Shown in pieces: positions 21,737 to 23,461 of a stretch of 32,000 nucleotides of DNA. How positions within the stretch are numbered: position 1 is the first letter of the stretch; the number at the start of each line of letters is the position of its first letter. Location: contig NC_000962.3 of assembly GCF_000195955.2 (NCBI RefSeq), forward strand, positions 3,690,001 through 3,722,000. The letters are read 5' to 3'. Both the position numbers and the translations under genes were made by a program. Source of the stretch: Mycobacterium tuberculosis H37Rv. GTDB lineage: Bacteria > Actinomycetota > Actinomycetes > Mycobacteriales > Mycobacteriaceae. The notes under the pieces were generated by a model. That model worked only from the letters and a program-made list of their open reading frames with translations. It ran no database searches and was not told where the DNA came from.

Positions 21737-22820
21737 GAGGCAACCACCATGGTTGTTGTTGGAACCGATGCGCACAAGTACAGCCACACCTTTGTGGCCA
21801 CCGACGAAGTGGGTCGCCAACTCGGTGAGAAGACCGTCAAGGCCACCACGGCCGGGCACGCCACAGCCATCATGTGGGCCCGTGAACAGTTCGGCCTCGA
21901 GCTGATCTGGGGCATCGAGGACTGCCGCAACATGTCGGCGCGTCTGGAGCGTGACCTACTGGCGGCCGGCCAGCAGGTGGTGCGGGTACCCACCAAGCTG
22001 ATGGCCCAGACCCGCAAGTCGGCGCGCAGTCGGGGCAAGTCGGATCCGATCGATGCGCTGGCGGTGGCGCGGGCGGTGCTGCGTGAAACCGACCTACCCC
22101 TGGCCACCCACGACGAGACGTCGCGGGAGTTGAAGTTGTTGACTGACCGTCGAGATGTCCTTGTGGCCCAACGCACGTCGGCGATCAACCGGTTGCGCTG
22201 GCTCGTCCATGAACTCGATCCCGAGCGGGCACCGGCAGCACGCTCGCTCGATGCCGCCAAGCACCAGCAGGCCCTGCGGACCTGGCTGGACACCCAGCCA
22301 GGATTGGTCGCCGAACTCGCGCGCGCCGAGCTGACCGACATCATCCGGCTCACCGGCGAGATCAACACCCTAGCCCAGCGCATCAGCGCCCGAGTCCACC
22401 AGGTCGCCCCCGCACTGCTGGAAATCCCTGGCTGCGCGGAGCTGACTGCAGCCAAAATCGTCGGCGAAGCCGCCGGAGTGACCCGGTTCAAAAGCGAAGC
22501 CGCCTTCGCCTGCCATGCCGCAGTGGCTCCCATCCCGGTGTGGTCGGGCAACACCGCCGGCCAGATGCGGCTCAGCCGCTCGGGCAACCGCCAGCTCAAC
22601 GCCGCCCTACACCGCATCGCACTGACCCAAATCCGGATGACCGACAGCCGGGGCCAGGCCTACTACCAAAGGCTGCAAGACGCCGGGAAAACCAAACGCG
22701 CAGCACTACGCTGCCTCAAACGCCGCCTAGCCCGCACCGTCTTCCAGGCCCTGCGCACCGTCCACCAGCCCAGCTCCGAACACACCCAACCCGCGGCCGC
22801 TTGCCATAGGAGCTATTGCT
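21737..22820 (+). mobile_element. IS1547 (IS110 family), 5' end removed or interrupted by IS6110; the 3' boundary is approximate
   Basis: The IS110-type transposase ORF starts 12 nt after the IS6110 end. Transposase homology ends near 22765 (...RCLKRRLARTVFQALRTV). The element must end before the host promoter-like motif at 22821. IS110-family elements lack inverted repeats, so I cannot see the exact end. Confidence 0.55.
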
Positions 22821-23461
22821 CGTCACACCTCGGCGAGCCACCTCGTCTAACGGATATGACACAGAAAACCCGCATCCAGCCCCTACCTCCCAAGCGAGCC
22901 GGCCTGTTGATCCGCGCACTGTATCGGATCGCCAAGCGGCGCTTCGGCGAAGTTCCCGAGCCGTTCACGGTCACCGCACATCATCGGCGGCTGCTGATCG
23001 CCAATGTGGTGCACGAAGCCCTGCTGCAGCGAGCGTCGCGGAAGCTACCGCCCAGCGTCCGTGAGCTGGCGGTGTTTTGGACCGCCCGCAGCATCGGCTG
23101 CTCGTGGTGCGTGGACTTCGGAGCCATGCTGCAGCGCCTGGACGGGCTGGACGTGGACAGGCTCACGGACATCGACAATTACGCCACCTCATCGAAATTC
23201 AGCGACGACGAACGCGCCGCCATCGCCTACGCCGAGGCGATGACCGCAGACCCGCATTCGGTGACCGACGAGCAGGTGGCCGACCTGCGGGCCCGCTTCG
23301 GCGAGGCCGGCGTGATCGAGCTGACTTACCAGATCGGCGTGGAGAACATGCGAGCCCGGATGAATTCGGCGCTGGGCATCACCGAGCAAGGCTTCAATTC
23401 CGGTGATGCCTGCCGCGTCCCGTGGGCTGCGCCCGACGTTCCTTCAGCGGAGAGCCGGTGA
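21749..23461 (+). CDS. IS1547 transposase ORF running without a stop into a host CMD-family gene ('transposase fusion protein', 570 aa)
   Basis: The N-terminal 340 aa are an IS110-family transposase (VVVGTDAHKYSH...; LLEIPGCAELTAAKIVGEAAGVTRFKSEAAFACHAAVAPIPVWSG). About 30 linker codons follow, and then the AhpD-like domain. Confidence 0.8.
   Translation: MVVVGTDAHKYSHTFVATDEVGRQLGEKTVKATTAGHATAIMWAREQFGLELIWGIEDCRNMSARLERDLLAAGQQVVRVPTKLMAQTRKSARSRGKSDPIDALAVARAVLRETDLPLATHDETSRELKLLTDRRDVLVAQRTSAINRLRWLVHELDPERAPAARSLDAAKHQQALRTWLDTQPGLVAELARAELTDIIRLTGEINTLAQRISARVHQVAPALLEIPGCAELTAAKIVGEAAGVTRFKSEAAFACHAAVAPIPVWSGNTAGQMRLSRSGNRQLNAALHRIALTQIRMTDSRGQAYYQRLQDAGKTKRAALRCLKRRLARTVFQALRTVHQPSSEHTQPAAACHRSYCSSHLGEPPRLTDMTQKTRIQPLPPKRAGLLIRALYRIAKRRFGEVPEPFTVTAHHRRLLIANVVHEALLQRASRKLPPSVRELAVFWTARSIGCSWCVDFGAMLQRLDGLDVDRLTDIDNYATSSKFSDDERAAIAYAEAMTADPHSVTDEQVADLRARFGEAGVIELTYQIGVENMRARMNSALGITEQGFNSGDACRVPWAAPDVPSAESR
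22821..22847 (+). promoter_or_regulatory. ECF41-type (SigJ-like) promoter motif, cGTCACA-N16-CGTC
   Basis: CGTCACA (22821-22827), exactly 16 nt, then CGTC (22844-22847). This compares with the published ECF41 consensus TGTCACA-N16-CGTC, which I recall from memory. The -10 ends 8 nt before ATG 22856, implying a leaderless or near-leaderless mRNA. Confidence 0.45.
22856..23461 (+). CDS. Carboxymuconolactone decarboxylase / AhpD-like family protein (probable independent product of the 3' part of the fusion ORF)
   Basis: The in-frame ATG at 22856 gives 201 aa, MTQKTRIQPLPPKRAGLLIRALY...ARSIGCSWCVDFGAM...ERAAIAYAEAMTADP. The CxxC lies in a CMD-domain context, and the ECF41-like promoter is directly upstream. 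Confidence 0.55.
   Translation: MTQKTRIQPLPPKRAGLLIRALYRIAKRRFGEVPEPFTVTAHHRRLLIANVVHEALLQRASRKLPPSVRELAVFWTARSIGCSWCVDFGAMLQRLDGLDVDRLTDIDNYATSSKFSDDERAAIAYAEAMTADPHSVTDEQVADLRARFGEAGVIELTYQIGVENMRARMNSALGITEQGFNSGDACRVPWAAPDVPSAESR

Follow-up and report, generated by a model that had tools for sequence, protein, structure and literature searches.

Within Rv3327 of Mycobacterium tuberculosis H37Rv, a 570-codon open reading frame (ORF) annotated as 'probable transposase fusion protein', we found a self-standing gene of the AhpD/carboxymuconolactone decarboxylase (CMD) superfamily behind a promoter motif of the type used by ECF41 sigma factors. The gene lies convergent to sigJ, which encodes a sigma factor of this group. 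We analysed a window of 32,000 nucleotides of the H37Rv chromosome (NC_000962.3, positions 3,690,001 to 3,722,000) that covers the region from moaX to dacB1. Positions given below count from the first letter of this window and become H37Rv coordinates when 3,690,000 is added, a conversion that fits the transcription starts reported in Rv3326, Rv3327 and Rv3329 (Cortes et al., 2013). We are nearly certain that the CMD gene and its promoter motif are real, conserved features, and we assign a probability of roughly 0.75 to the full model, in which a 201-amino-acid (aa) product is made from a leaderless transcript driven by SigJ at an ECF41 promoter. The long ORF itself is, judged from its sequence, a composite made by an insertion sequence (IS) rather than an evolved fusion gene. 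The features that carry the argument are as follows.

21749-23461, + strand: composite ORF Rv3327, 570 codons
22821-22827, + strand: -35 element CGTCACA, with the invariant core GTCAC at 22822-22826
22844-22847, + strand: -10 element CGTC, 16 nt past the -35 element and ending 8 nt ahead of the ATG at 22856
22856-22858, + strand: ATG of the CMD gene, supported by the -10 distance and an invariant first methionine, and predicted start of a leaderless transcript
22856-23461, + strand: AhpD/CMD-superfamily gene, 201 codons, with a CxxC motif (CSWC) at 23099-23110
23394-24341, - strand: sigJ (Rv3328c), ECF41 sigma factor with a fused SnoaL_2 domain, from Pfam matches and its listing as ECF41 in Table S1 of Wecke et al. 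(2012)

An ECF41-type promoter motif ahead of a stand-alone gene

The initial annotation of this locus had placed the sequence CGTCACA-N16-CGTC ahead of an in-frame ATG at 22856, and direct reading of positions 22821-22847 agrees. This ATG is in frame with the start of Rv3327 at 21749, from which it is separated by 1107 nt (369 codons). The pattern YGTCACA-N16-CGTC occurs once on the two strands of the 32-kb window, compared with 0.03 occurrences expected from shuffled sequences. Aside from position 1 of the -35 element, the motif equals the ECF41 promoter TGTCACA-n16-CGTC, which was defined experimentally in Bacillus licheniformis and Rhodobacter sphaeroides (Wecke et al., 2012; PMC3426412). 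Its 16-nt spacer lies within the 16 +/- 1 nt taken as the range for ECF41 promoters.

We compared 82 orthologous mycobacterial loci, comprising 80 with one genome per species (L001-L080) together with those of M. decipiens (L087) and M. shinjukuense (L089). In keeping with the initial annotation, the motif is present 8-9 nt from the ATG in 82/82 loci, with GTCAC, CGTC and the 16-nt spacer all invariant; a gap of 8 nt between the end of the -10 element and the ATG is the commoner form (71 loci), and the other 11 loci have one of 9 nt. Column information reaches about 2 bits in the -35 and -10 elements and falls to about 0 over the 36 columns that precede the motif. The 'one mismatch' from TGTCACA that had been pointed out is correct in that C differs from the consensus, but C is the commonest mycobacterial base at position 1 of the heptamer (C in 43 loci, T in 28 and G in 11). 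Despite the insertion described below, every conserved promoter base is kept in H37Rv.

The M. tuberculosis sigI promoter (TGTCACATTCGGCGGGGCTGTCTCGTC), of the TGTCACA-N16-CGTC type (Wecke et al., 2012, Table S1; PMC3426412), can be set beside the Rv3327-internal one (CGTCACACCTCGGCGAGCCACCTCGTC). The two have equal spacer length and the same -10 element, a -35 element of the same type and similar spacer content. They differ in that SigJ is reported to bind the sigI promoter in vitro and to drive it in Escherichia coli (Goutam et al., 2017; PMC5766207), whereas the Rv3327-internal promoter is predicted from sequence. A SigJ-dependent sigI promoter is also attributed to Homerova et al. (2008), as cited in Goutam et al. 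(2017; PMC5766207).

A database search with residues 370-570 of Rv3327 returned 3,781 relatives, the closest of which are about 201 aa long, come from many Mycobacterium species and share 78-90% identity with the query. The proposal that the CMD gene is self-standing holds throughout the orthologous loci: the gene is separate and starts with MTQKTR in 82/82, and no fused orthologue outside the M. tuberculosis complex (MTBC) was found among them. In an alignment of 20 orthologues, MTQKTR opens every sequence, the first methionine is invariant, and so is CSWC. Against four orthologues, the M. tuberculosis gene gives dN/dS values of 0.13-0.21. Within the MTBC, the exact 201-aa product has been called as a separate gene in very many assemblies.

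Single-family models matched the protein below their thresholds. Pfam CMD (PF02627) scored 19 bits on the C-terminal 201 aa against a gathering score of 23 (E = 1.4e-3), and the NCBIfam models peroxid_rel and ahpD_dom scored 49 and 18.2 bits against cut-offs of 81.8 and 27.8. A profile built from the 20 orthologues matched the solved structures 2gmy, 2oyo, 6k40 (AhpD), 7xw1 (CMD family) and Bmp8 with E-values from 3.7e-9 to 1e-4, with GCSWC aligned to GCAFC; this profile homology supports the earlier assignment of an AhpD/CMD domain with a CxxC motif. An AlphaFold2 model from a shallow alignment was all-helical with a pLDDT of 60, which we judged too weak for a fold search, and it was not used.

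At least eight stand-alone orthologues of about 200 aa (P0003, P0016, P0075, P0090, P0101, P0112, P0113 and P0115), from M. decipiens, M. asiaticum, M. kansasii, M. malmoense and several Mycobacterium sp., carry the name 'transposase' in NCBI and UniRef. This naming is evidently an error propagated from the annotation of Rv3327.

A convergent ECF41 sigma factor

SigJ is one of 13 M. tuberculosis sigma factors, and sigJ mutants have been reported to be sensitive to H2O2. To our knowledge, sigI is its only known target. The sigJ product has the ECF41 architecture, with matches to Sigma70_r2, Sigma70_r4_2 and SnoaL_2 (E = 1.8e-7, 32.1 bits against a cut-off of 27), and the identical MTBC protein appears in Table S1 of Wecke et al. 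(2012); the neighbour had thus been rightly described as an ECF41-type sigma factor with a fused C-terminal domain. In 75/82 orthologous loci, the CMD gene is followed by a sigJ-like gene on the opposite strand. Beside the CMD gene and convergent sigJ, the motif occupies the place by which ECF41 promoters are recognized, upstream of a neighbouring carboxymuconolactone decarboxylase, oxidoreductase or epimerase (COE) gene.

Known ECF41/COE pairs include Ecf41Bli-ydfG, Ecf41Rsp-RSP_0606 and M. marinum MMAR_1196/MMAR_1197 (Wecke et al., 2012; PMC3426412), which have in common with the present locus a SnoaL_2-like sigma factor C-terminus and an adjacent CMD/AhpD-like gene behind a TGTCACA-N16-CGTC-type promoter. 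The convergent arrangement '>ECF> <COE<' accounts for nine cases in the table of the same study, which gives M. marinum MMAR_1196 as 'ECF> <Hypo' with MMAR_1197, the M. marinum orthologue of the CMD gene, and the promoter CGGCCTGTCACATTCGGGCGGCCCGTCTCGTCTGAGG (Table S1). By these features, sigJ and the CMD gene are a canonical ECF41 sigma factor/COE pair in the rarer convergent arrangement.

The MTBC differs from the other ECF41 pairs in that its target gene is buried in a transposase-fusion ORF. The entries for M. bovis and M. tuberculosis SigJ read plain 'ECF' and name neither a neighbour nor a promoter (Wecke et al., 2012, Table S1; PMC3426412), and sigJ has been described as lacking a flanking COE gene (Goutam et al., 2017; PMC5766207). 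MTBC SigJ was scored as an orphan because the target gene is hidden within the annotated fusion. In the literature that we searched, no mention of Rv3327 together with SigJ or ECF41 was found. The presence of a COE-type gene beside sigJ corrects the published statement; it adds no new mechanism.

The CMD gene and sigJ overlap by 68 nt at their 3' ends (23394-23461). M. decipiens and M. shinjukuense have a shorter overlap of 35 nt, and overlapping ends are frequent across the 82 loci. A transcript begun at the CMD promoter would continue into sigJ in antisense and could act as feedback.

Transcription start and expression

At promoters of extracytoplasmic function (ECF) sigma factors, transcription starts several nt past CGTC. 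Here it would begin at the A of the ATG at 22856, or no more than 1-2 nt from it, and would give a leaderless mRNA, since the fixed gap of 8-9 nt between the -10 element and the ATG leaves no room for a ribosome-binding site. No Shine-Dalgarno sequence lies at a usable distance ahead of this ATG. Leaderless mRNAs are common in mycobacteria (Cortes et al., 2013; Shell et al., 2015). The two mapped ECF41 promoters differ, with leaders of 22-23 nt and a ribosome-binding site (Wecke et al., 2012). That study gives 31/32 nt in Table 5 versus 22/23 nt in the text, an ambiguous hint of a -10-to-start distance of about 9 nt.

Several observations weigh against a SigJ-driven leaderless transcript. No start at 3,712,853-3,712,857 is found in the accessible tables of Cortes et al. 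(2013), Shell et al. (2015), Smith et al. (2022) and D'Halluin et al. (2023), and the sole entry for Rv3327 among the intragenic starts listed for starved cultures in the accessible part of Cortes et al. (2013) is 3,712,360. The 1,518 proteins tabulated in the latter study do not include Rv3327, and the literature that we searched contained no SigJ regulon data naming Rv3327. The insertion has replaced the native DNA upstream of position 1 of the -35 element. Finally, SigI is also an ECF41 sigma factor with the same promoter type, and gene linkage is the one line of evidence that assigns this promoter to SigJ. Rows for Rv3328c or Rv3327 were not found in the accessible supplement on ChIP and over-expression of Minch et al. 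(2015).

Cortes et al. (2013) list intragenic starts at 3,711,370 (Rv3326), 3,712,360 (Rv3327) and 3,715,264 (Rv3329). The weak start at 3,712,360, which is position 22360 of the window on the + strand, lies within the transposase coding region and comes from starved cultures; transcripts from it would continue into the CMD gene.

These expression data could be read to mean that the motif is intact but silent in M. tuberculosis, with the CMD product expressed through read-through from IS1547 or IS6110, as a fusion or not at all. The missing start near 3,712,856, the presence of the upstream one, the absence from the proteome table and the replacement of everything upstream of the -35 element would all suit a silent promoter, as would the position of IS6110, which carries an outward-facing promoter and ends 12 nt ahead of the transposase ATG. 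However, all conserved promoter bases are kept, and strains without the transposase part retain both the promoter and an identical gene. Moreover, no usable Shine-Dalgarno sequence stands at the ATG, and read-through RNA could therefore yield the fusion only. Promoters of ECF sigma factors are normally silent without their active sigma factor; sigJ expression rises in late stationary phase (Hu and Coates, cited in Goutam et al., 2017; PMC5766207), and the accessible start-site tables represent starved cultures only. We consider a silent promoter quite improbable.

Alternatively, the promoter could be used mainly by SigI, or by SigI and SigJ together, rather than by SigJ alone. Both proteins belong to ECF41, sigI carries a promoter of the same type (Wecke et al., 2012, Table S1), and SigJ drives sigI, so that any effect of SigJ on the CMD gene could be indirect. 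The linkage of the CMD gene to a sigJ-like gene in 75 of the 82 loci argues for SigJ, because ECF41 sigma factors characteristically act on the COE gene beside their own (Wecke et al., 2012). A main or shared role for SigI is rather unlikely, and we retain SigJ as the preferred sigma factor for the CMD promoter.

Origin of the fused frame

The upstream part of Rv3327 and its junction with the CMD gene can be divided as follows.

21749-22801, + strand: IS110-family transposase proper, 351 codons as in its relatives, from Pfam and NCBIfam matches
22802-22804, + strand: TGC (Cys352), at the place of the stop codon TGA in relatives
22805-22855, + strand: read-through linker, codons 353-369, consisting of the IS1547 right-end tail (to 22817), a palindrome remnant and translated promoter DNA

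Pfam DEDD_Tnp_IS110 and Transposase_20 match at aa 4-307 of the Rv3327 ORF (E = 3e-24 and 2e-22), and NCBIfam transpos_IS110 (NF033542) spans aa 3-337 with 196.5 bits against a cut-off of 140. Relatives of the transposase number more than 100; they measure 349-357 aa, align over 95% of the query and have ...QPAAA-stop at their end, and those of 351 aa have the C-terminus ...HQxxxQxxQPAAA-stop. The DNA of relatives at this place reads gcggccgctTGAcataggagc, with TGA (L091-L100 and L040), while all IS1547 copies have gcttgCcataggagc; in the H37Rv copy, gcggccgctTGCcataggagc places TGC at 22802-22804. Rv3327 runs past the transposase because TGC stands where relatives have TGA. The ORF call, the IS110 domain matches and this replacement confirm the earlier description of a 570-codon transposase ORF without a stop of its own.

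The same description had treated about 30 codons after the transposase as junk-like. This fails for H339-A351, as these 13 of the 31 residues (HQPSSEHTQPAAA) are the conserved native C-terminal tail of the transposase, and it stands for C352-D369, 18 codons of read-through. In orthologous loci, the DNA that corresponds to the linker is non-coding promoter DNA.

Since no IS1547 copy has its own stop, the frame terminates in whatever DNA flanks each copy. The copies part in sequence after ...tattgctcg, and the products are 363 aa (L081-L083), 419 aa (L086) or, in the H37Rv window, 570 aa long. That IS1547 borrows its stop from flanking DNA is already on record in PMC13630536 (citing Fang et al., 1999), which places it with IS1110, IS870 and ISMt1 as elements whose C-terminus is set by the insertion site. 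New to this known behaviour are the tracing of its cause to one base (TGA to TGC) and, at this locus, the entry of the frame into a complete host gene through its promoter. Peptides predicted to span the junction are SYCSSHLGEPPR and LTDMTQK.

IS1547 and its palindromic target

Elements of the IS110 family that are guided by bridge RNA or seekRNA target repetitive palindromes, as with IS621 in REP sequences. The intact IS1547 is 1331 bp long in M. tuberculosis CDC1551 (L085 3817-5147), and its remains in the window end at a palindrome.

21737-22817, + strand: IS1547 remnant, with 12 nt of the left end, the transposase and the right end, from alignment with CDC1551 and other copies
22818-22821, + strand: GCTC, the last bases of a TRIT-like palindrome, the final C being position 1 of the -35 element

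An IS relative with 76% identity (protein P0216) occurs at no fewer than five distinct sites (L091-L100), each time between ...GGGGGCTTTTGCGTCT and GCTCG..., and joining of the flanks restores a perfect palindrome of about 55 nt (dG -38 to -59 kcal/mol for the folded segments). In CDC1551, IS1547 has the left flank GAGCAGACGCAAAAGCACCCCATTTCGGCACGAAATGGGGGCCCTTTGCGTCT, and its right flank is GCTC with GTCACACC directly after it; when the left flank is joined to the GCTC side, a hairpin is again obtained (dG -53.8 for the folded segment). We place the end of IS1547 at 22817 because the GCTC(G) past the element belongs to the palindromic target at the sites of the relative. From these junctions, IS1547 is seen as inserted in the 3' arm of the palindrome, 3-4 bp upstream of the -35 element, leaving the conserved promoter bases untouched. 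The earlier suggestion of an insertion just upstream of the promoter is hence correct in position and is amended as to the target, which is a palindrome abutting the promoter.

Two other boundaries were considered. A right end at 22822, with a 'CG' core common to three junctions, and a left junction CAGACG/CAAAAG in CDC1551 were both rejected, as M. shinjukuense has the palindrome without any IS and GCTCG past the element belongs to the target at ten loci of a related IS.

For both IS1547 and its 76%-identical relative, the target can be written as GAGCAGACGCAAAAGC...GCTTTTGCGTCT, the IS and then GCTC, with insertion at a CT dinucleotide; in IS1547, TT takes the place of this dinucleotide at the right end. 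The window also holds an intact and perfect member of this palindrome family at 17576-17640, just after sdhB (GCGAGCAGACGCAAAATCGCCC...GGGCGATTTTGCGTCTGCTCGC, dG about -60), and M. shinjukuense likewise has this palindrome element after sdhB. The family is probably the TRIT terminator motif of Gardner et al. (2011; PMC3152330).

The left end of IS1547 in CDC1551 (L085 3817-4078) is a non-coding stretch of 262 nt. It contains a 12-nt copy of the target, CTTTGCGTCTGC (positions 96-107), with GAGCAG, the reverse complement of CTGCTC, about 25 nt further on, and an 8-nt stretch, ATAGGAGC (positions 177-184), identical to the IS1547 right end. This layout fits a putative bridge or seek RNA of the IS110 type with target and donor loops. 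Rfam gave no family match for the left end or for the palindrome. IS1547 resembles IS621-type IS110 elements in its DEDD and Transposase_20 domains, its insertion at CT in a palindrome arm and the target and donor copies in its left end; it differs in that its target is a mycobacterial terminator-like palindrome, the guide RNA is only putative, and the left end is lost in H37Rv, whose copy would have no guide.

In M. kyorinense DSM 45166 (L040 1-120), the right end of a related IS110-family element, with TGA kept, is found in the remains of a GCTCG palindrome, 10 bp ahead of the -35 element of the orthologous CMD gene; the contig breaks within the IS. We interpret this as an independent insertion at the equivalent place.

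IS6110 and variation within the MTBC

Next to the IS1547 remnant lies a second element.

20382-21736, + strand: IS6110, 1355 bp, with terminal repeats TGAACCGCCCCGG and CCGGGGCGGTTCA and ORFs with IS3-type domains

IS6110 replaces the left end of IS1547. Its end, 12 nt ahead of the transposase ATG, cuts the ribosome-binding site of the transposase (GAAGGAGG in CDC1551) to GAG. The DNA to the left of IS6110 is not IS1547, and the H37Rv copy has therefore lost the entire 262-nt left end, which is consistent with an IS6110-mediated deletion. A sub-threshold match to the ALIL frameshift pseudoknot was seen at 20720-20804.

We also compared eight complete MTBC genomes (L101-L108), selected for having the 201-aa gene annotated separately. 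Strains with only 19 bp of IS1547 left include GCA_002504245.2. IS1547 is cut to its last 80-152 bp in five of these and to 19 bp in L105; the copy in L103 has a 1-nt insertion, and that in L106 a 20-bp tandem duplication of the right end (gccataggagctattgctcg twice). From ccataggagctattgctcg through the promoter and the CMD gene, the sequence is unchanged in 8/8, and the 201-aa product is identical. Given that the IS1547 part is cut, frameshifted or duplicated in these genomes, the fusion frame is not maintained within the MTBC, whereas the promoter and the gene are. In L104, an IS6110 end abuts the IS1547 remnant.

The 570-aa transposase-CMD fusion could in principle be a selected, functional protein, such as a redox-responsive recombinase. 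The junction frame is open and in phase in both H37Rv and CDC1551, and Rv3327 has been reported in one proteomics study, other than that of Cortes et al. (2013), without peptide detail. Such a role is hard to reconcile with a linker that is translated promoter DNA, with the lack of a fused orthologue outside the MTBC among the loci examined, with IS1547 copies elsewhere whose frames enter unrelated flanks to give the 363-aa and 419-aa products, and with the eight genomes above, chosen for their separate 201-aa call, in which the transposase part is damaged and the CMD gene is not. We regard a functional fusion as very improbable, and a composite ORF made by IS insertion remains our reading of Rv3327.

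Proposed course of events

In the ancestral state, a gene for an AhpD/CMD-like CxxC protein of about 201 aa would have lain convergent to sigJ behind the ECF41-type promoter nGTCACA-N16-CGTC. A terminator-like palindrome would have directly abutted the -35 element in the MTBC ancestor, and IS1547, as a palindrome-targeting IS110-family element, would have entered the 3' arm of this palindrome 3-4 bp upstream of the -35 element. Once past the end of IS1547, the transposase frame would have crossed the 4 bp left of the palindrome and a promoter region of 35 bp, both by chance open and in frame, and so have run into the CMD gene. RNA polymerase with SigJ, perhaps also with SigI, would initiate at about 22856, and the physiological product would be the 201-aa protein from a SigJ-dependent, possibly also SigI-dependent, leaderless transcript. 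For the fusion to be made, transcription would have to begin further upstream, such as within IS1547 or IS6110, and read through; 3,712,360 and the outward IS6110 promoter are candidate starts, and the fusion is presumably of low abundance.

A more speculative extension, on which we would not place much weight, is that this AhpD-like CxxC protein is the missing direct effector of SigJ and explains the H2O2 sensitivity of sigJ mutants, and that read-through differing with the local IS content (IS1547 intact, truncated or frameshifted, or IS6110 12 nt from the transposase ATG) makes its expression variable among strains and partly independent of SigJ. Antisense transcription into sigJ, by way of the conserved 3' overlap of the two convergent genes, would then vary among strains too.

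Conclusion

Our findings point to a canonical ECF41 target with a textbook promoter, encoding a thiol (CxxC) AhpD-like protein directly beside sigJ and masked by an annotation artefact. The annotation of Rv3327 should be split, since omics analyses that mask it as a repetitive IS gene would miss a unique host gene. The CMD promoter would be a ready reporter for the signal sensed by the SnoaL_2 domain of SigJ, and the CMD protein is a testable candidate for the factor behind the reported H2O2 phenotype of sigJ mutants.

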